From a virus (Duplodnaviria > Caudoviricetes), in the IMG/VR virus record IMGVR_UViG_3300028888_000001: DNA of 64,000 bases; one strand, written 5' to 3'. Both the position numbers and the translations under genes were made by a program. Within the stretch, counting starts at the first letter, position 1; each line of letters begins with the position of its first letter. The notes under the pieces were generated by a model. That model had not been told where the DNA came from, did not search any database, and was given only the letters and a program-made list of their open reading frames with translations. Of the stretch, positions 3,152 through 56,330 are shown one piece after another.

Positions 3152-3235
3152 GCCCGATTGACGGAATTGGTATACGTAACGGACTTAAAATCCGTGGTCC
3201 TATATGACATGTGGGTTCGAGTCCCACATCGGGCA
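3152..3235 (+). tRNA. tRNA-Leu(TAA)
   Basis: GCCCGAT/ATCGGGC acceptor stem, ACGGA-CTTAAAA-TCCGT anticodon arm, long variable arm, GTTCGAGTC T-loop. Confidence 0.95.
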
Positions 3236-12258: not shown

Positions 12259-13605
12259 ATGTTAAATATGACTATTTTTGGAGTTGGAGCTGCAGGTAAT
12301 AAAGCAGCTATCAATCTTATCGAAAATGGAATTGTTGCTCCTGAATATATCAAGCTTTTAAATACGTCAAGCAAAGATATTCCAGAGGAGTATAAGAATT
12401 CAGATATATTTGTAGCATTTAGTTCTGGCCTTGGAGGATGTGGTAAAGAATCTTCCAAAGGCAAAGCTGCTATAGTAAATGCTATGCGTAAAGGCACAAT
12501 TGATTTTGGAGATTTATTTAATGAAGATTCACAAGAAGTAGTATTAGTATCTTCCGTTGAAGGTGGAACCGGATCTGGGTCTGTACCTCAGATTGCTAAG
12601 TTCTTTATAGAAAATAATGTACCAACACATGTATTCGCATTGATAGGATTCCAGGATGAAGCTAGAGGTATCAATAACACTCTTAAGTTCTTTAAAGAGC
12701 TTCCAGATGGAGTTATTCTTCATACTATAAATAATGGATTTTTCTTGGATTATACTAAGAATTATTCCAAAGCAGAACAAGCAGCGAATGATGAGTTCGC
12801 TACAGAAATTGAAATTCTTAGGGGATCTAAATTGATCAACTCATCTCAGATTATTGATGATGCAGATTTATTGAAGATCAATACAGCTCAGCCTGGATAT
12901 ATGACTATCAATCATATCAATTTGGCTGGGATTAAAAATGTATCCGGATTCAATCAAGCAATTGTTGAGTCATTTGATAACAGCTGCTATCTTGAATCAT
13001 CTAACACGTGTAAGCTTATAGCTGTAATCGTGAACGGCGGTAGAAGAGTAAAAATGTCTGTTGATAACTCCTATGAAGTGATCAAGAGATACACCGGTAT
13101 GCCGCAAGAGCTGTTTCAGCATATTCAGCCAGATAATGATGAAGAGTATATTAATGACGAGTATATTGATATCATTGTTGCTGGAATGAAATATCCAGAA
13201 GAGTCTATACTGGATATGAGCAATAAGTATAAAAAACTTAAAGAACAGATGTCTGCTAAGAGAAAATCTTTTGATGATATCTTCGCTGACATCGATATTG
13301 ATGAGATGGATGATATTGATGCTAGTACATCTATAAAGTCTAGACTTAAATCATCTAAATTCAATAAAGATATCTTCGCTGATATACCTGAGATGGCAGA
13401 TGAAGATGATGCAGCAGTAGAAGAGAACCCCGCTACAGGGTATAAGAATACTAAGAGAGAAAACGCTGTCTCTAGAGTAAAAGAAAACCCTATGAGTCCT
13501 CCACAGGAGAAGAGCTTCAAACTCAAGAGTGGAGGAAATGCAACAGGCCGACTAATCGGATCATCGTCAACAGATTCAACTTCTGATGATATTAACAATT
13601 TTTAA
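12259..13605 (+). CDS. Tubulin/FtsZ-family GTPase (PhuZ/TubZ-like)
   Basis: GVGAAGNK, GLGGCGK, tubulin signature SVEGGTGSG; long acidic C-terminal tail. Confidence 0.92.
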   Translation: MLNMTIFGVGAAGNKAAINLIENGIVAPEYIKLLNTSSKDIPEEYKNSDIFVAFSSGLGGCGKESSKGKAAIVNAMRKGTIDFGDLFNEDSQEVVLVSSVEGGTGSGSVPQIAKFFIENNVPTHVFALIGFQDEARGINNTLKFFKELPDGVILHTINNGFFLDYTKNYSKAEQAANDEFATEIEILRGSKLINSSQIIDDADLLKINTAQPGYMTINHINLAGIKNVSGFNQAIVESFDNSCYLESSNTCKLIAVIVNGGRRVKMSVDNSYEVIKRYTGMPQELFQHIQPDNDEEYINDEYIDIIVAGMKYPEESILDMSNKYKKLKEQMSAKRKSFDDIFADIDIDEMDDIDASTSIKSRLKSSKFNKDIFADIPEMADEDDAAVEENPATGYKNTKRENAVSRVKENPMSPPQEKSFKLKSGGNATGRLIGSSSTDSTSDDINNF

Positions 13606-14930: not shown

Positions 14931-15084
14931 GAGATATTATAGCTTGATATTCTACAGAGGGTGGAGAAATCCACCCTCTGTATTATTTTTAATATAAAAT
15001 TATCAAAAAATACATTTTTACAAGCCAGATTACATTCTTATAATGAAATATAAAGAGCAAATTATCCTCAAGGAGGTAAAAATA

Positions 15085-16317
15085 ATGTCTATATTAGCAG
15101 CTGCATTTAGGGAAGCTGTAAAGAAAACAAAAGACTATTCTCAGATAAATGAGATGAATTATTCTATAAGCTATCCTACAGGGTTTTTGAACCTTGATTT
15201 TGCAAATGGATATATACAAAATGTAAACGGTAAACTTAGATATGAACTTGGAATCACAGATGGATCTATTAATATGATTATCTCTGATTCCGGTTTAGGA
15301 AAAACCACATTAGCAACTCAGATAGCTTGCAATATCGCTAGACGATTCAAGTCGTCTACCATATTTTATGAGCAAGCTGAGGTTGGCACTAATATACAAA
15401 GAATAAAAAATCTATCTGGTTTCCAGACAGATGAAGAGTTTCGTAATAGATTTGTAATTAGAGACGCAGGTATTACAACAGAATCAATATTTGAGCGTAT
15501 CAAGATGATTCACGATATTAAATTAGAGAACAAAGACGAATACTTATATGACACTGGTCTTATAGATATGGCTAGTAAGCCTATATTTAAATTCGAACCA
15601 ACGATAATGATAGTTGATTCCCTTAAGCTAGTTATGTCAAGAAAGAATACTGAAGCAGATGAGACTAATAATATGACTGGAGCTACCAATGCCAAAGCCA
15701 ATTCAGAGTATTATATTAAGATGGTTCCATTATGCCGTGAAGCTAATATTATTATGCTTATCATAAATCATATTACGGTTGACGTTAATACTGGTTTTCT
15801 TCCAAAGAAATCAGAATTCCCATACTTAAAGCAGGGTGAGCACATTGCCGGTGGTAAAAGTGTGGTATATATTCAAAACAATGTATTCCGTCTTGATATT
15901 AAATCTAAGCTGAAACCAGAAGAGGGCTTTGGGATTACTGGATCTGTAGTAAATGTAGATATAGTAAAATCTAGAAGTAGCAAAACATCAAGAGCTAAAT
16001 GCTGTCTAGTGTTTGACCAGCTTACTGGATTTGATCCTGAGCTAAGTTTATTCTATATGCTCAAAGAAGAGAAACTTATTGAAGGCGCTGGTGTAAGCTT
16101 AAGAATCCCAGGGTGTGATATAAAATTCTCACAGAAGAATTTTAAAGAGAAGCTCTATAATGAACCAGAGTTATACAATGCATTTTCTAGTTTATGTGTA
16201 GAATATTTATCAAATATGCTGCTAGAAGAATATAACCAAGCTAGCAAAGAAGAACACGTAGGTGATTCTAAAAAGTCAGTATATGAAAACATGTTAGACA
16301 GGCTAAACTCCAATTAA
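15085..16317 (+). CDS. RecA/UvsX-like recombinase
   Basis: YPTGF..LD, Walker A DSGLGKTT, Walker B MIVDS, IINH, GGK motifs. Confidence 0.88.
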   Translation: MSILAAAFREAVKKTKDYSQINEMNYSISYPTGFLNLDFANGYIQNVNGKLRYELGITDGSINMIISDSGLGKTTLATQIACNIARRFKSSTIFYEQAEVGTNIQRIKNLSGFQTDEEFRNRFVIRDAGITTESIFERIKMIHDIKLENKDEYLYDTGLIDMASKPIFKFEPTIMIVDSLKLVMSRKNTEADETNNMTGATNAKANSEYYIKMVPLCREANIIMLIINHITVDVNTGFLPKKSEFPYLKQGEHIAGGKSVVYIQNNVFRLDIKSKLKPEEGFGITGSVVNVDIVKSRSSKTSRAKCCLVFDQLTGFDPELSLFYMLKEEKLIEGAGVSLRIPGCDIKFSQKNFKEKLYNEPELYNAFSSLCVEYLSNMLLEEYNQASKEEHVGDSKKSVYENMLDRLNSN

Positions 16318-16693: not shown

Positions 16694-16924
16694 ATTTTAT
16701 CACGTTAGAAATGCCATTATTAAGAGGGATTTCATTATTCATTCAGCTGCAGTAAGATATTGTTCATGAATACCTCCTTTCTAATATTATTAGTCTCTCA
16801 TTAATAATGGCTTTCTATATATTAAATTTTTTGTCGATTATATATTATAAATTTGAATGTAAAAATAACAAGCATGATATTATAAAATTTTACATTCAAA
16901 TTTATTTATAAGGGAGTGATAAAA

Positions 16925-18020
16925 ATGGCTTTTAATCTAGAGAATCAGATTCAAAATAATATTAAAGATTTACCGGATTACAACTATATGCTAGGTAGAA
17001 CTTTAATGCAGCCTTTTAAGCCTAGTAACTCTGGATCACGAGCATTGATGTCAGCTATACATGTTGAGCATTTAATGGTTCCATCAAAACCGGAAACCCC
17101 ATTAGTTCAAACCGGATATGAAACTGAATTTGGCGAGATGTCTACTAGTTATATCGAAGCTAGTGGTAATTGGGAAGTAATTTATAAAATAAACAAATTT
17201 TCATTTAACAACAATCATTATTATCTCATAGTAAGAAATCTAGAGACTGGTATATATGATGTGATTGAGAGAGTCACGTATAAACATAATACAGAGTCTT
17301 ATGGATATATGTGGGATAACAGTCGTATTGATGCGTTGAATATCGGAGACGTTATTAAAGATAAATCCATCATTAAAACTTCTAAAGGCTTTGACGAATT
17401 TGGAAATAAAATGAATGGAGTTAATCTATTAACGTTATATTTAAGCTGTGGACAGAATATGGAAGACTCGATCATTATATCTGAATCTGCAGCGAAAAAA
17501 CTTGAGACTAATCTGATAGAGAATACGTCGATCACCATAAATGATAATGATATACTATTAAATCTGTATGGTGATTATAATACGTATAAAACATTTCCTG
17601 ACATTGGGCAGAAAATAAACAACGGCATATTCTGTGCAATAAGAAGATTAGAGAATGAAAACTTATTATTCTCTCTATCTCAGCAGAGATTGAGAGATAT
17701 AATGATTTCAGATAGAAAAATTATAATGGATGGATATGTAGCAGACATCGATGTCTATTGTAACAATGTAGAAGCTCTTGGAGATTCTACTTATAATAAG
17801 CAGCTTTATAAATATTATCAAGAAAGAATTAATTTCTGTAGACAAGTATATGATCTTGTTGGCCCAATAGCATTAAATAACCAGATGACTTATGATCTAC
17901 AAGAGTTATTTGGAATTGCTAGAGATACCATTACAGGAAAGCAGTTTTTTAAAGAACGACAGTTTAACAATGTCATCATGGAAGTTACAGTAATGCATCC
18001 ACTGCCAATAATGGACGGAG
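16925..18020 (+). CDS. Phage (non-virion) RNA polymerase beta-like subunit, exon 1
   Basis: NSGSRALM, GQNMEDSIIISES RpoB motifs; ends ATG GAC GGA G just before the conserved GDK motif. Confidence 0.88.
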
Positions 18021-18466
18021 AAACTATATAGTTATCTCAGCGCATTTAGTAATAAGTGCGTTCCTACGGGGTTAATTGCAGGTAATTGGTAAAGCCTCGC
18101 ACCAAAGCGGAATCTGAAAAGATAGACGTAAAGGGACGAAAGTAGAAAAAACGCGAGGATGGTATATGGTTAAATGAAAAGTAAAGTGTATAGTCGGTAA
18201 TATACTTTACCCCTAAGTACTATTTAAAAATCCATGTTCTTGCAGCGAAACACCTAAAAGATTTTATCTCATGGTGGACGTTCAACGACTATCCGATGGC
18301 ATCGGAGTAAAGCCGCAAGCTAAAGGCGGAAGAAAAATCCCGGCCCTATTCTTATAGGGATGATAAATAGTCTATGCACGTTTCGAAAGAAAGTGACTTG
18401 GAATTGACCAAGCAATATATGTTGCGAATATATTGAAATCTGGCTCCCGTTTTAAATAAATACAAT

Positions 18467-18512
18467 TTTCTCAACACCTCGGTAAATCTTAACTCGGAAA
18501 GGTGGTGAGAAA
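18467..18512 (+). promoter_or_regulatory. RBS-sequestering hairpin with embedded late promoter upstream of tnpB
   Basis: TTTCTCA-A-CACCT pairs with AGGTG-G-TGAGAAA; AACA-CCTCGG-TAAA at 18473-18486. Confidence 0.7.
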
Positions 18513-18516
18513 TATC

Positions 18517-19722
18517 ATGAGTAATTCTACTTATATAAAAGGGTTTAAATATCGAATTTATCCAAATGATTGTCAAAAAGAAATTATAAATAAATTTGTG
18601 GATATGTATAGATTTGTTTATAATTGGGGTCTAGCTCTTGAAGAAGAGACATATCAAAAGTTCTTAAATGGAGAATCGGAGAAACGATTTTTATATTTCT
18701 TTGATCTATGCGCCGAATTTAAAAAGTTCAAATCTATAGAAGAAAATTCTTGGGTTTGTGAGCTTCCAAATACAACTGCGCGTTTAGCATTAAGAGATGT
18801 AATATATTCATTTCAAAAATTCTTTAAAAAGATAAATAGGTACCCAAAATTTAAATCTAAAAAGCGAAGTGTAAAAACTTTTAAAACTAGATCGGATAGA
18901 TTTTCATTTAATGATGATGGGAAGCTAAGATTTGAAGGCCTTCCTAAAGCATTTGTTGATGCTGCTTCCGATAGAGTTGATTTGCACTTCGATTGTGGAT
19001 TTAGAGATGAAAAATTTATACAGCCTTCTATTTCTATTGATAATCTTGGACGATATTGGGTTTCATTTTCTGTGGAAACTGAATGTGAAGTTCTTGACAC
19101 TCCAAAAACAGAACCAATAGGTATCGACTTAGGAGTTAAGACTACAATAACACTTTCTATAGGAGAGAAATTTAATAAACCCAAAGAAAAGTTAGAAAAA
19201 ATACAGCGTCAAATTAAGAAAGCCAATAGACGCGTTTCTCGTGATATTAATCGAAGATTTGCCGAATCAAGACGTACGAAAACCAAGTACGAAGATATAC
19301 CCAAAAGTAACCGCGCTATTAAGCGACAAGAAAAACTTTCTAAGTTATGTAAAAGACGGTATAATATCAAACGCAATTTCTATCATGAAACTGCTAAAAA
19401 GATAGTATTAAGGAATCCTGAAGGCATTGTGATGGAGACTATTCCAGTTCTTGAAACTATGAGAAAATATAAGAAAACAGCGAAATTTTTAGCTGACGCT
19501 GATTTCTATTTAATTACTCAAATTTTCAAAGAAAAATGCACGAAGTATTCTGTTCCGTTTATGCAAGCTGATAGATCATTTCCTTCATCGCAAATTTGTT
19601 CTAATTGCGGGTCAACTAGAAAAATTGGCGGTTATCATACTTATATTTGTCATAAATGTGGTATGAGAATGGATAGAGATATCAATGCTGCTATAAATCT
19701 TAGAAATCTATTCTTCGCTTAA
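18517..19722 (+). CDS. tnpB: TnpB RNA-guided endonuclease
   Basis: N-terminal KYRIYP HTH, RuvC GIDLG / VMET / DRDINAAINL, zinc finger CSNCG..CHKCG; catalytic D-E-D present. Confidence 0.93.
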   Translation: MSNSTYIKGFKYRIYPNDCQKEIINKFVDMYRFVYNWGLALEEETYQKFLNGESEKRFLYFFDLCAEFKKFKSIEENSWVCELPNTTARLALRDVIYSFQKFFKKINRYPKFKSKKRSVKTFKTRSDRFSFNDDGKLRFEGLPKAFVDAASDRVDLHFDCGFRDEKFIQPSISIDNLGRYWVSFSVETECEVLDTPKTEPIGIDLGVKTTITLSIGEKFNKPKEKLEKIQRQIKKANRRVSRDINRRFAESRRTKTKYEDIPKSNRAIKRQEKLSKLCKRRYNIKRNFYHETAKKIVLRNPEGIVMETIPVLETMRKYKKTAKFLADADFYLITQIFKEKCTKYSVPFMQADRSFPSSQICSNCGSTRKIGGYHTYICHKCGMRMDRDINAAINLRNLFFA

Positions 19723-19729
19723 AGCTTTA

Positions 19730-19955
19730 ACGGTTTATACAAATAGCTGGGTAGGTGTTGTATGAACTTTTGTACCGGGCACTGCTCTCGGGAATTTAAG
19801 TTCGTGGAGAATTGTATTTTATATTATAGTATTTACTCGGTATTTCGGAGCCGAGACTCTATTCTCCTTATTGGGAGGATAGGGGTTGCTATAGTATAAA
19901 TTAGTTTGACGAAGCGAAAAGGCGGGAGCCAAAGCAGATAAACTTTCCGATCGGT
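19730..19955 (+). ncRNA. Predicted TnpB omega-RNA scaffold with guide from exon 2
   Basis: Hairpin-rich 3' region with TACCG..CGGGAATTTAAGTTCGTGGAG and GAAGCGAA (TTCG/CGAA pairing) like TnpB-element right ends; boundaries approximate. Confidence 0.6.
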
Positions 19956-21082
19956 ATGGCGGTAAAGGTGTAGTTTCAAAAATACTTCCAGATAACAAAA
20001 TGCCAATACTTGAAAATGGTGAAGTTGTAGACATTATTAAGAACCAGAGTACGTGTATTAATCGTGAGAATATTGGTCAGCTGCATGAGCAGTCATTGAA
20101 TTTCATTGGTATGAGAATTCTTGACTTCTTTAAAACAAATGTGCTGACATACTCTGAGATGGTTCAGATGTGGTATAAATTCGTTTCTATGGTTGATCAA
20201 CCTCAAGCACAGATGGGCGCTGGGATGATTGACTTCTATGACGAAGAACAATGCAGATTGTTTATAGAGTCTATCTATGACGATGGTGGTATTATATTAT
20301 CATCTCAGCCGTTTACGACTCCTATAAATCTAGATACTATAGCAGAAATCTATAAAGAATTTCCATTCATTAAACCCTATAAGGTAGCTATGCCTATAGA
20401 AGACAGTAATGGTAATATAAGATTTGTAAAGTCCAAAAGAGACTTAGTTGTTGGAAAAATTTATAATTATAGACTCAAACAATATGCAGAGGAGAAATTC
20501 TCTGTAACGTCTTTATCGGCTACCAATCTTAAGAACTTAAATACTCGTTCTAAAGCTAATAAAGCGTATGAAACTAAGTATGCTAAGACACCGATCATGT
20601 TCGGTACCATGGAATCTGGTAACCTGTCTCATCTAGGCATGCAATATGTGGTAATGAATCTCATGCTATATAGTAGTAGCCCTAGAGCTAGAAGACTGTT
20701 TGAAGAGCTATTAATTGGAAATCCATATGATATCAATATAGTATTGGACAAAGACAGCAAAAATAGAAACGCTGAAATCATCAATGCTTTATTGAAAACT
20801 ATGGGTTTGAAATTAGTATTTTCAAAAGAACCAAAAGAAAAGAAAACCATGATGAATAATATTATGTATGAGCTTGTAAGTGCTAAAGACTTTAAACCTA
20901 AAACTAATATTAGACAGATCATGGACTTTTATGATGATGAAATAGAGCTTAAATATGCTGGAGCTCTTCATCATAAAAATAATAAACCAATGTATAATCT
21001 TATAATGATGGAGGATGTCAACAATGACGAACCTCAAACAAATATTAGAGCAATCATTGAAGAATCTGACGGAGAAGAATGA
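19938..21082 (+). CDS. Phage (non-virion) RNA polymerase beta-like subunit, exon 2
   Basis: (D)KLSDRYGGKGVV, MPILENG..DII.N..INRENIGQ, YNYRLKQ, FGTME motifs. Confidence 0.9.
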
Positions 21083-23351
21083 TCCTACAATTGCTCTTTC
21101 TATAGACTTTGGAGTAATGGTTTCGCAAGAAACTGTAAATCTAATTCAACGACAACTTAACTGGAATCAAGACGACATAGATGAAGCTAATATTATACTT
21201 CATATTTCTAATATTCTTTATAATAATTCCAGTGTTAATATCCTACCATTAGATGATGGATTATATGATCAGCTTCTGGTAGCATATAAACGCTATAATC
21301 CGCTTGGTTATCAAGTTGGAGCTGAACCTATAAAGCTTCAAGAGATAGTTCAGCCAGAATTTGAAGAAAAGAGATATATGTATACTTGTATAACTAACAA
21401 CGAATTAGATTCAAAAATGTATACTAGAGATATATTAGATCAACATACAAAACTCAATGAGTATCGCCCTGTTGAAATGATGTATCTTGTACAAGATCCA
21501 ATTACAAAAAGACTTATAAACACAAAGCATAAATATCCTGAGCTAGTTGGCACTCTAGATAAATGTAAATTTGTCTTAAATGATGAGGCTGCATCTAGAG
21601 GAGCTATAGACAATCCAGCTGTACAGGTGTTTGAAAGAGACTTCATACAAAAGCACATCACGCAAGGCGTTATCGATCCATATAGACCGATTAGCATGAT
21701 AGGCGAGCTTAAGTATGATGGTGTTTCTGTTGAGGCTGAAGTTTGTGGAGATAGAATACTCTCTGCATATTCTAGAGGTGATACAGCAGAAGACATAGCA
21801 ACTGATTTAACACCTATATTTAAGAACTATAATTTCTATAGAGCTAAGAATGTACCTAAAGATGTAGCTTTTGGTATTAAATTCGAAGCAGTGCTTACTC
21901 ATAGAAATTTAGAGCTCTTAGGTCAGATGAGAGGTAAAGAATATAAAAATGGTAGAAACGCAATCATTGGTCTGCTCGGAGCATCTGATGCTTATATGTA
22001 TACTGATATGATTACGTTAATACCGTTATCGACATCGCTAGATATGGATAGAGTTAGCGAATTGAAATTTCTCAATAAGTATTATTCTACTGGAGAATTC
22101 AATAGATTCGTTGAGTTTTATGGAGATTATATCTCTATCCTTTATCAGGTTAACCAGTTTACACAATCAGCTGAGTTGGTAAGAAAAGTATTACCTTACA
22201 TGATAGATGGCGTAGTTATCTCATATACAGACCCAAATATCATTAGGCTTCTTGGCAGGGTTAATTCTGTCAATAAATATCAGATGGCTATAAAATTCAA
22301 CCCAAGAAGTGTACGTACTATATTCTTAGGTTATACTTATAATATCGGTAAATCTGGTGAAATAATTCCAATGGTTCATTTCAAACCAGCAGAATTTATC
22401 GGTACTATACATACTAAACAGACTATCCACTCTCTACAGAGATTCAATGAGTTGTCTCTTATCAAAGGTCAGGAGATAGACGTAGATTATGTAAATGACG
22501 TTATATCTTATGTAACCAAACCAGATACAGCTCATAATAGGCAATTACAATCTCAATATAGACCAGAGCCATTTATACAGATTTGTCCATATTGTGGTTC
22601 TAGGATAGAAATATCTGATACAGGTAAATCCGCTAGGTGTCCGAATGTTCATTGCCATGAAAGAAAAATTATGAGAATGGTTGATATGATATCTAGGTTA
22701 GGATTTAAAGATTTCTCTGAAGAGACTGTAAGAACATTAGATTTGACCGAGTTTTGTGATCTAGTTAAAGTTTATAACTATGATGAGTTATTAAATAAAC
22801 TAGGCCCAATAACAGCAGACAAATTTATCAACTATCAGAAAGAGTTTCTAGCCAACCCAATAGAAGATTATAAAATCATGGCAGCATTAAGCTTTGAAGG
22901 GATGGCTGAAGAAAAATGGAAAACTATTCTTAAAGTATTCGATCTTCATACTTTAGCTGGAATGAATAACGCTATGCTAATAAACAGTCTTGTTTCTATA
23001 AACGGCATAGGGCCAGCTATAGCAAATGCTGTTGCTAATGGATTTGCTGATTATTCTAACGATATAAACTTCATACTTAATAATATAAAAATTATAGACT
23101 CTAAATACATGGCTAATAAGCCTAAAGTTGCTCTCACTGGAACAAGAGATCCAATGTTGATAGACATTATCAGGTCTCAAGGTTACGATTGTGATGAAAA
23201 ATATGGTGTTACCAAAGACATAGCTTTGCTAATAACAACGGATTTAAATTCTACGTCTGGTAAGATGGATAAAGCTAGAAAATACGGAATACCAATACTG
23301 ACTCCAGAACAATTCTATCAGTCGCATAACATTCAATTTGGCGCATTTTAA
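21015..23351 (+). CDS. ligA: NAD-dependent DNA ligase
   Basis: ELKYDG adenylation motif, SRGD, DGVV, AIKF, zinc finger CPYCG..C..C, BRCT C-terminus; exact start uncertain. Confidence 0.93.
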   Translation: MSTMTNLKQILEQSLKNLTEKNDPTIALSIDFGVMVSQETVNLIQRQLNWNQDDIDEANIILHISNILYNNSSVNILPLDDGLYDQLLVAYKRYNPLGYQVGAEPIKLQEIVQPEFEEKRYMYTCITNNELDSKMYTRDILDQHTKLNEYRPVEMMYLVQDPITKRLINTKHKYPELVGTLDKCKFVLNDEAASRGAIDNPAVQVFERDFIQKHITQGVIDPYRPISMIGELKYDGVSVEAEVCGDRILSAYSRGDTAEDIATDLTPIFKNYNFYRAKNVPKDVAFGIKFEAVLTHRNLELLGQMRGKEYKNGRNAIIGLLGASDAYMYTDMITLIPLSTSLDMDRVSELKFLNKYYSTGEFNRFVEFYGDYISILYQVNQFTQSAELVRKVLPYMIDGVVISYTDPNIIRLLGRVNSVNKYQMAIKFNPRSVRTIFLGYTYNIGKSGEIIPMVHFKPAEFIGTIHTKQTIHSLQRFNELSLIKGQEIDVDYVNDVISYVTKPDTAHNRQLQSQYRPEPFIQICPYCGSRIEISDTGKSARCPNVHCHERKIMRMVDMISRLGFKDFSEETVRTLDLTEFCDLVKVYNYDELLNKLGPITADKFINYQKEFLANPIEDYKIMAALSFEGMAEEKWKTILKVFDLHTLAGMNNAMLINSLVSINGIGPAIANAVANGFADYSNDINFILNNIKIIDSKYMANKPKVALTGTRDPMLIDIIRSQGYDCDEKYGVTKDIALLITTDLNSTSGKMDKARKYGIPILTPEQFYQSHNIQFGAF

Positions 23352-54637: not shown

Positions 54638-55031
54638 CAATTATCTTCACATAGTTCGCTATACTATGCAGTTCTCTTATGAACTTCTATAGGTGTTACC
54701 TATACGTTGAGACTATATTACTGCTCTTATTATTTTATAAGAAGCTCTATTTATTTTGAACTCGCTTGAGCTCTACTCGCATGTAGCGATAGTCGTTGAA
54801 CTTTTTATTATGATATTTTTTTAAAATCTCATAATAACTTAGCTGCTGATTATACATTGTTAACGGCTTTTAGCACCATCATTATACAATGATGGCTTTT
54901 ATTTCAGCATGAGCCATCCTCTAATTTATTTCTATCTTTCGATTCCTATATTTAGGTATAGAGGCTTTAGCACTTCCCAGCAATTAAAATAGATTTAGAC
55001 ACCGTGTCACCACGATGAATGGACAAATTTT
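54638..55031 (-). mobile_element. Group I intron 2 of terminase (394 nt, ORF-less)
   Basis: P1 GGAU|AAAAUUUGUCC with U.G; AATTGCTGGGAA, AATCAGCAGC, GTTCAACGACTA, ATATAGTCT; P9.0 AA/TT then terminal G; splicing gives TTD-EGKE in frame. Confidence 0.92.
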
Positions 55032-55504: not shown

Positions 55505-55909
55505 CGTTATCTTCACAGAGTTCGTTAAGCTCTGCAGTTCTCCTATGAACTTCTATAGGTGTTACCTATAGCACGAGACTATATCAGTATCCTATATGGT
55601 ATAGGATATTCTTCATTTCGATTTAAGGGGTTCTCACCCACTCACTTGAGCCCTACTCCTATAGACTATTTTTATAGCGCCATCCTATGGGATAGTCGTT
55701 GAACTTAATTTTTTATATATTAAGCTGCTGATTGTACATTGTTTATAGCTTTTAGCACTTCACATAAGTGAAGCTTTTATTTCAGCATGAGCCATCCTGA
55801 AACTTGTTTCTATCTTTCGATTCCTTATAGGCATTCAGGCTTTAGCACTTTCCAGCAATTAAAAGAAATTCACTCACAATATTACTACTATAAGTGGATT
55901 ATAAGATTA
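55505..55909 (-). mobile_element. Group I intron 1 of terminase (405 nt, ORF-less)
   Basis: Same core motifs; P9.0 GT/AC then terminal G; splicing restores Walker A PRQQGKT. Confidence 0.9.
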
Positions 55910-56330
55910 GTCGAGGCGCTTCATAAAATACATTAAGATTTAATGCTTGGCAAAAATTTAAAGCAAGATTACCTCTAGTAAGTTTATATCGCATTGGCGC
56001 ACCGCCAGGCGATGGGATTCTCACAACCTCGCGGATGAAATACCAATAATTACTGAGGCATTCTTTAAGTATTTTTTGCTTATAAAGCATATTTAGATTC
56101 GGATCATATGGATCTACACCATCTAGATCTGGATCTATTAACGTAAGCATAAACTCATTATTCTTAATACCGATGGCTTTAAGATAATGATGCATATCTA
56201 AAAACGATTTATTTTTAGTCGTTTTCTGCGCATAAATACGTTTTATTGGTGTCGGTTTTGCTATCACTGGAGGCGGCATAAAACTGCCCATTGTAGGTGT
56301 AGCAGATTGACCTGCAAACATTACAGGCAT
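55910..56330 (-). CDS. Terminase large subunit, exon 1
   Basis: EC..NYWYFIREVVRI, L.RGN, ends EAPR; spliced product 771 aa; late promoter at 56357. Confidence 0.9.

Follow-up and report, generated by a model that had tools for sequence, protein, structure and literature searches.

An IStron-like intron in a jumbo phage RNA polymerase gene with an internal late promoter motif and leader strands complementary to its omega-RNA

The locus described here raises the question of how a single intron can be spliced and also supply a guide RNA. Two recent papers on IStrons described the fate of these RNAs as a trade-off within one transcript. Their measurements used plasmids to which promoters had been added, and they concluded that efficient splicing may require giving up guide function. 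An intron that lies in an essential phage polymerase gene and carries an intact TnpB should need splicing and guide alike. The original prediction for this locus, made from the letters of the DNA, proposed that a long-range helix and the choice of promoter together separate the two functions.

The intron, its host gene and its TnpB

The 64,000-nt window, which is the whole stretch of DNA analyzed, is part of the complete 313-kb genome of an AR9-like jumbo phage. A sheep-gut metagenome run contains the entire window and is its possible source. The interrupted gene encodes a non-virion RNA polymerase (nvRNAP) beta-like subunit, and all features of the gene and its insert are on the plus strand. 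Exon 1 (16916–18020) and exon 2 (19938–21082) both match chain C of the AR9 nvRNAP (7s00_C; E values of 6e-53 and 5e-24), and intron-less relatives also support the assignment of exon 1. Excision of positions 18021–19937, a group I intron or transposase-less IStron of 1,917 nt, joins the two flanking open reading frames into an open frame of 750 amino acids with the beta motif GDKLSDRYGGKG. In a protein search, 15 related phage genes were uninterrupted at this position; a degenerate DNA search for empty sites returned no match.

The 5′ splice site lies directly after the last G of exon 1, which ends at 18020 in GGAG, a putative TAM. The segment spanning this site (18018–18038) was read directly from the sequence. 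The terminal G of exon 1 pairs with a C in P1, and CAG forms the end of the intron. Registers with splicing after an A or a G two bases away were discarded, since neither P9.0 nor the terminal G would be kept. The opening ~16–20 nt of exon 2, from 19938, are predicted to guide against intron-less alleles; in the nearest such alleles found, GGAG precedes the site and three of 20 positions mismatch the guide. The ribozyme core (P2 to P9.2, with P7.1 and P7.2) is IA2-like and occupies 18036–18435, its peripheral helices being assigned by eye. It includes the 5′ strand of P9.0 (18375–18377) and a GAAUAU motif (18426–18431). Rfam Intron_gpI matches the insert with an E value of 1.3e-4, under the gathering score, and an Rfam search at the gathering score missed the intron in the polymerase gene. 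The core ends with P9–P9.2 and is followed by an 81-nt leader, tnpB and a 215-nt tail. Contigs from one sheep-gut RNA run cover, at low depth, parts of both exons, the ribozyme (18044–18446) and tnpB; none contains the splice joint, and such contigs cannot show starts, strand or level. Collectively, the host-gene insert has the features of a group I intron whose predicted splicing would restore the gene.

The tnpB gene (18517–19722) encodes 401 amino acids. The RuvC residues D204, E307 and D388 and the zinc-finger cysteines are invariant across 47 relatives, and the protein scores 218.6 bits against the guided_TnpB profile (cut-off of 100). It falls under both subfamily cut-offs and is closer to the IS200/IS605 model. 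There is only one copy of tnpB in the phage genome, and neither type of transposase was found, as PF00239 and PF01797 gave no match across the complete 313 kb. TnpB may be active and may promote homing into intron-less alleles.

Close relatives were obtained by exact-protein look-ups, and scans of IMG/VR and JGI with TnpB returned mostly distant IS elements. TnpB identity among the relatives is 33–61%; one of them, L180, was found through the intron motif instead. Three loci (L011, L173 and L182) are truncated within or close to the leader. From exon translations, the insertions are in phage genes, mostly for RNA polymerase subunits, with one in a helicase Walker A motif. The sites differ among relatives, all of them following GGNG, and the element is present as a single copy in the phage genome. 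In L010, L172, L183 and L180, exon 1 ends in CG or TG and the intron in AG; a serine recombinase would therefore find no common crossover dinucleotide. These ends fit spread of the elements without TnpA.

Several other insertions were seen in the course of this work. Related TnpB introns in L182 (1559) and L013 (1982–3908) interrupt the same beta gene seven codons downstream (RY/FGG-GKG), so this beta motif has two insertion sites. L185 carries an empty form of the L181 site, ~100 nt downstream of its own intron. In L190 and L194, the same gene carries ~360 additional nt around codon 45, in the exon 1 region, probably another intron. On the minus strand of the window, two ORF-less group I introns (54638–55031 and ~55505–55910) lie in one gene; splicing of the former after a U gives an open frame, and no join was found for the latter in the same frame test. 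Outside the window, G000 contains at least seven further group I intron cores, some holding ORFs, and four of these cores cluster 2–5 kb before the window start. By motif, the polymerase gene is surrounded by Tubulin/FtsZ-like (12259–13605), RecA-like (15043–16317) and NAD-ligase-like (21015–23351) genes, a neighborhood that resembles the early/replication regions of jumbo phages. The window also encodes tRNAs at 2374–2445 and 3152–3235.

The intron-closing helix and the omega-RNA

The long-range complementarity that had been proposed reads exactly as described: 18441–18453 and 19919–19931 form 13 contiguous pairs, two of them G.U, enclosing 1,465 nt. We call this helix H1. Its 5′ end lies 5 nt past P9.2 and its 3′ end 6 nt short of the terminal G (19937). 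The claim that it places tnpB in a loop and keeps the 3′ splice site close to the ribozyme core is supported. H1 is the strongest helix between the 5′ part of the intron and its 3′ tail (–21.7 kcal/mol), an energy reached by none of 150 dinucleotide shuffles (mean –14.0, standard deviation 2.3), and it has a pair probability of 0.95 in the full-length fold (18436–19960). Among 12 elements that share ancestry, the present copy and 11 relatives, a helix is found at this position in 11, with sequences unrelated between elements; L182 is the one without it. In these 11 elements it starts 3–7 nt after P9.2 and ends 3–8 nt before the 3′ splice site. Pairing of the cognate strand ranked first among 23 in eight elements and second to fourth in three. 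A comparison of sense and antisense energies showed no G.U strand bias for H1 (sense strand stronger in four of 12) and was uninformative on RNA-level selection.

The unpaired linker bases flanking the helix total 8–14 nt across the elements and about 11 in the present copy. Since one ORF-less intron in the window has 10 nt from P9.2 to the terminal G, H1 looks like an insertion that preserves linker length. The helix itself is already known: it is the inverted-repeat (IR) stem of Tourasse et al. (2014, PMC4227781), who reported that the ORFs of all IStrons follow P9.2 and a GAA-type motif, with such a stem flanking them. Splicing may depend on H1.

The omega-RNA scaffold (19732–19937), assigned from folds and covariation, consists of SL1 (19732–19768), a pseudoknot hairpin (19775–19791), a core stem (19801–19804 with 19915–19918) that encloses a three-way junction, and a terminal 3-bp GNRA hairpin (19921–19930). 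In 12 aligned tails, the pseudoknot hairpin, the core stem and a third short stem showed 94.8% pairing with 20 double changes. This covariation exceeds that of all 500 shuffles and all slid controls, on a score that kinship of the sequences inflates. The hairpin loop CTGCT (19782–19786) pairs with AGCAG (19933–19937), the last five bases of the intron, located 3′ of H1. The five-pair match co-varies in the relatives: CTGCT/AGCAG, CTGAC/GTCAG, CTGTA/TGCAG, CTGGT/ACCAG and CTGTT/AACAG. In L008 (5276–5283) one base of the loop fails to match the end of the intron, and this guide RNA is perhaps decaying. The last five intron bases can serve as the 3′ strand of the pseudoknot or in P9.0 and as omega-G, the two uses being mutually exclusive, and this is the known conflict between splicing and guide.

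The pseudoknot had originally been assigned elsewhere, to the strand GAAGCGAA (19911–19918), and this did not hold: its CGAA pairs with TTCG (19801–19804) in the nested core stem, which co-varies in all 12 elements. Pairing of GAAGCGAA with 19714–19720 as a pseudoknot was also rejected, a full seven-pair match near the stop codon being present in only two of 10 elements. As a consequence, the 3′ strand of H1, which had been placed between pseudoknot and guide, is actually flanked by the core stem on one side and the pseudoknot strand on the other. Competition between H1 and omega-RNA folding stands insofar as that strand overlaps the terminal 3-bp hairpin; against the core and pseudoknot, the cost is only ~0.2 kcal/mol. 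In the present copy, H1 is retained in the full-length model when the omega fold is forced, and the local alternative to its 3′ strand is a 3-bp hairpin with a probability of 0.19–0.48. Most relatives have a stronger local hairpin there, and the energy of their last 60 nt reaches as low as –17.8 kcal/mol. The competition predicted for the present copy, judging from these models, would mostly involve the leader strands described below and the choice between P9.0 and the pseudoknot.

Leader strands and promoter motifs

Within the 81-nt leader, 14 bases (18458–18471) can pair with 19806–19819 on the core-stem extension (H2) and the next eight (18472–18479) with 19753–19760 in SL1 (H3). Both helices are nested, with a pair probability of 0.88 each in the full-length fold, and the probability of SL1 drops from 0.80 in the predicted late RNA to 0 in that fold. 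In the relatives, leader strands complementary to the conserved core or to SL1 track its base changes, with up to 21 perfect pairs (L174), and the complementarity reaches a shuffle p value of ≤0.05 in eight of the 10 close elements. Forcing the omega fold was costlier with the native leader than with all 12 shuffled leaders in seven of 11 elements; the effect was absent in L008, L180 and a shortened model of the present copy.

Unconstrained folding ignores pseudoknots and recovers the omega core poorly even in the late RNA, so constrained energies were used, and the shortened and full-length models disagree. In the shortened construct of the present copy, the leader imposes no penalty on the omega fold (2.8 against 3.2). 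In the full-length model, the forced fold costs 9.8 kcal/mol in the long RNA and 2.8 kcal/mol in the late RNA, a gap of ~7 kcal/mol; the long-RNA cost falls to 4.8 kcal/mol when a hairpin over the tnpB ribosome-binding site (RBS) is formed. Thus, by computation, an anti-omega effect of the leader has good support across the lineage, but in the present copy it depends on the model used.

The RBS hairpin (18468–18479 with 18500–18511) uses a 5′ strand that is common to H2 and H3, and in the present copy these pairings have nearly equal energies. A hairpin burying the tnpB RBS was computed in all 12 elements. Starting the RNA at the late position lowers the cost of opening the RBS by 6.8–12.9 kcal/mol in 11 of the 12; the maximum among 38 host genes is 6.6. 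In the full-length fold of the late RNA, the tnpB RBS is predicted to pair with ORF sequence.

In AR9, late promoters have the form AACA-N6-TA/G with the start at the last base, and early promoters have an AT-rich motif followed by N6-G (PMC5312081). An early-type motif, TATATATTAT-N6-G (16839–16855, predicted +1 at 16855), was found upstream of the host gene, in agreement with the early transcription that had been suggested for it. A late-type motif, AACA-N6-TA, is present at 18473–18484, with 18484 as its predicted +1, which would account for the proposed late transcripts from this position that lack the 5′ strand of H1. Such transcripts would be unable to splice regardless, as the entire ribozyme is missing from them. 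Both motif types show a spacer preference in this genome: among 45 early-motif sites, 20 have G at N6, compared to 1–10 for other spacers, and AACA-N6-TA occurs upstream of genes 41 times, compared to 7–17 for other spacers, with a density of 1.91 per kb upstream of genes and 0.40 in coding DNA.

The late motif is exact at the matching place in eight of the 12 elements, and in the others it is one change off (two in L172); it lies 23–43 nt from the tnpB start codon. It is downstream of H1 and the anti-omega strands and overlaps the 5′ arm of the RBS hairpin, and its CA doubles as anti-SD pairing bases. On the genome's own matrix it scores 6.8, the genome median being 14.0. A sigma-70 scan of the leader gave nothing specific, with one weak 9/12 match. 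From these motifs we infer that the promoters fire, and the timing of the transcripts. With a conserved late promoter, the RBS hairpin and the antisense leader, the promoter-choice idea is better supported than was possible when it was first put forward.

Two proposed transcripts, rival explanations and known systems

We suggest, with a probability of roughly 0.6, that the element produces two kinds of RNA: early read-through RNA is spliced, and late RNA yields TnpB and the guide. Transcription that starts at the polymerase gene's early promoter and reads through would give an RNA with the ribozyme and the whole leader. H1 would close off both tnpB and the omega-RNA. With ~11 linker bases left unpaired, much as in introns that lack an ORF, the last intron bases could dock as P9.0 and omega-G and not in the pseudoknot, and the remaining leader strands would block the tnpB RBS, pair with the omega-RNA core, or both. 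Splicing of this RNA would restore the nvRNAP subunit, and the polymerase would then initiate late RNA at ~18484, without ribozyme or leader strands. As the late RNA lacks these strands, its RBS would be free and its omega-RNA could fold with the guide; TnpB–guide complexes would then cut intron-less alleles and bring about homing. A fuller form of the two-transcript reading, to which we give a little less than an even chance, extends it to IStrons in general, regards the leader behind P9.2 as a built-in antisense to omega-RNA and RBS that the promoter removes, has guide production in this phage lineage wait for splicing because the late promoter needs a polymerase that only splicing makes, and takes the IR helix as the cause of the 18-nt splicing determinant and the SL5 effect of CboIStron. 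Promoter choice may resolve the splice-versus-guide conflict; published data show control of fate without it.

CboIStron allows a cross-check. The IStron on NC_015417.1 matches the published CboIStron in its TGGG site and in the length of its left end (581 bp). Its helix comprises 14 perfect base pairs with the 3′ strand at –21 to –8, and the 5′ strand is followed by a sigma-A-like promoter with a perfect –35, a 17-nt spacer and four of six matches at –10. Published truncations showed that the last 16–20 nt are needed for splicing. The SL5 hairpin is required for cleavage; its stabilization abolishes splicing, explained by the authors as competition near the internal guide sequence, and one-sided changes of its 3′ strand kept splicing. 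The 3′ strand of the helix covers the 16–20-nt determinant and overlaps SL5, and the splicing data fit a role of the helix, which must either tolerate some mismatches or not be strictly needed, since the one-sided changes still splice. A search of the text of the CboIStron papers turned up no mention of an internal promoter that would separate the two fates; their figures may draw the helix. L202 (NC_015417.1) and L113 are TnpA-bearing IS607 IStrons in which the 5′ IR strand is immediately followed by a sigma-70-like promoter, and the L202 spacer can pair with the RBS.

It is possible, although we consider it unlikely, that H1 is purely architectural, closing the ORF loop and aiding docking of the 3′ splice site. 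In that case the RBS hairpin and the late promoter would only time TnpB as in T4, there would be no anti-omega leader, and the fate of the long transcript would be set by the pseudoknot, the terminal hairpin and TnpB binding, as published. The compatibility of H1 with the omega core and pseudoknot and the lack of a leader penalty in the shortened model both favor this explanation, as do published IStron data in which the stability of the local omega-RNA structure and the binding of TnpB explain RNA fate; the recurrence of leader strands that track changes in the core or SL1 (p ≤ 0.05 in eight of 10) and the 7 kcal/mol difference in the full-length fold of the present copy do not. The original proposal made H1 alone the switch, its 3′ strand being needed for omega-RNA folding. 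Local terminal hairpins in most relatives (up to –17.8 kcal/mol), and the requirement for an SL5 that overlaps the helix in CboIStron cleavage, agree with this idea, which nevertheless appears quite improbable here, where the local alternative has just 3 bp, the pseudoknot is outside H1, and H1 persists under a forced omega fold.

We regard it as very improbable that the complementarity is a DNA-level inverted repeat, either a transposase site or a duplication scar, with no role in RNA. The lack of G.U strand bias in H1 would agree with such an origin, and the IR motifs of group B are presumed to be transposase sites (Tourasse et al., PMC4227781), but pairing and position are kept while the sequences share nothing between elements, no transposase of either type was found in the complete genome, the 5′ copy is 420 nt inside the left end, and the corresponding segment of CboIStron is required for splicing. 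Among the openly accessible papers searched, we found none that deals with an internal promoter or an antisense leader in IStrons.

The element was compared to group B (IS607-type) IStrons, including CboIStron, BcISt1, CbISt3/4 of phage c-st and CsISt1 (PMC4227781; 10.1101/2023.11.20.567912; PMC13521648). Like these, and CsISt1 above all, it has an IA2-like intron with an ORF after P9.2 and GAAUAU and an IR stem around that ORF; its 5′ exon ends in G, and its right end forms an omega-RNA with a pseudoknot on the last bases, placed like PK-2 of CboIStron, and a guide from exon 2. Two features hold for IStrons in general and were found here, namely an IR stem after P9.2 and a GAA-type motif, and tnpB with an omega-RNA that ends at the 3′ splice site. 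Group B exons end in G (GG, or AG in CsISt1) and the introns in CGG or CAG; here the ends are GGAG and CAG. As in CsISt1, which carries ORF B only, the insertion follows AG and the end is CAG. Unlike group B, there is no serine-recombinase TnpA (whole or truncated in that group, absent in CsISt1) in the element or the genome, and the leader is only 81 nt. The long AU-rich IR stem of group B (15–34 bp, with a 3′ direct repeat) is replaced by 13 GC-rich pairs; this short stem resembles group A, while most relatives have long AU-rich stems with a local alternative. Also unlike group B, several relatives lack a shared crossover dinucleotide, the sites are conserved motifs of essential phage genes, a predicted phage late promoter takes the place of the sigma-A-like one, and the leader has additional anti-omega strands.

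[quoted passage not shown] There too, an early gene is interrupted by a group I intron that loops out a nuclease gene, the RBS is buried in read-through RNA, and a late promoter inside the hairpin leads to late translation. An RBS hairpin specific to read-through RNA was computed here for 12 of 12 elements, with 38 host genes as controls. In contrast to T4, the nuclease is RNA-guided, so that a guide overlapping the 3′ splice site has to come from the late RNA as well, and the promoter would be read by a polymerase whose own gene the intron interrupts. The AR9 nvRNAP (PMC5312081; PDB 7S00) offers a further comparison: its chain C is homologous to the host gene, and the early and late motifs match those of AR9 and are enriched in the present genome; promoter use has been mapped in AR9 and is predicted in the present phage. 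The element would work like a T4 homing intron made of IStron parts; it is IStron-like but departs from group B in transposase and long AU-rich stem.

The layout described here would be a way to have both functions, splicing and guide, in one element. It names the bases to mutate, including those in a reconstituted CboIStron, and gives design rules for splice-competent TnpB cassettes. These findings support RNA-guided intron homing between jumbo phages.
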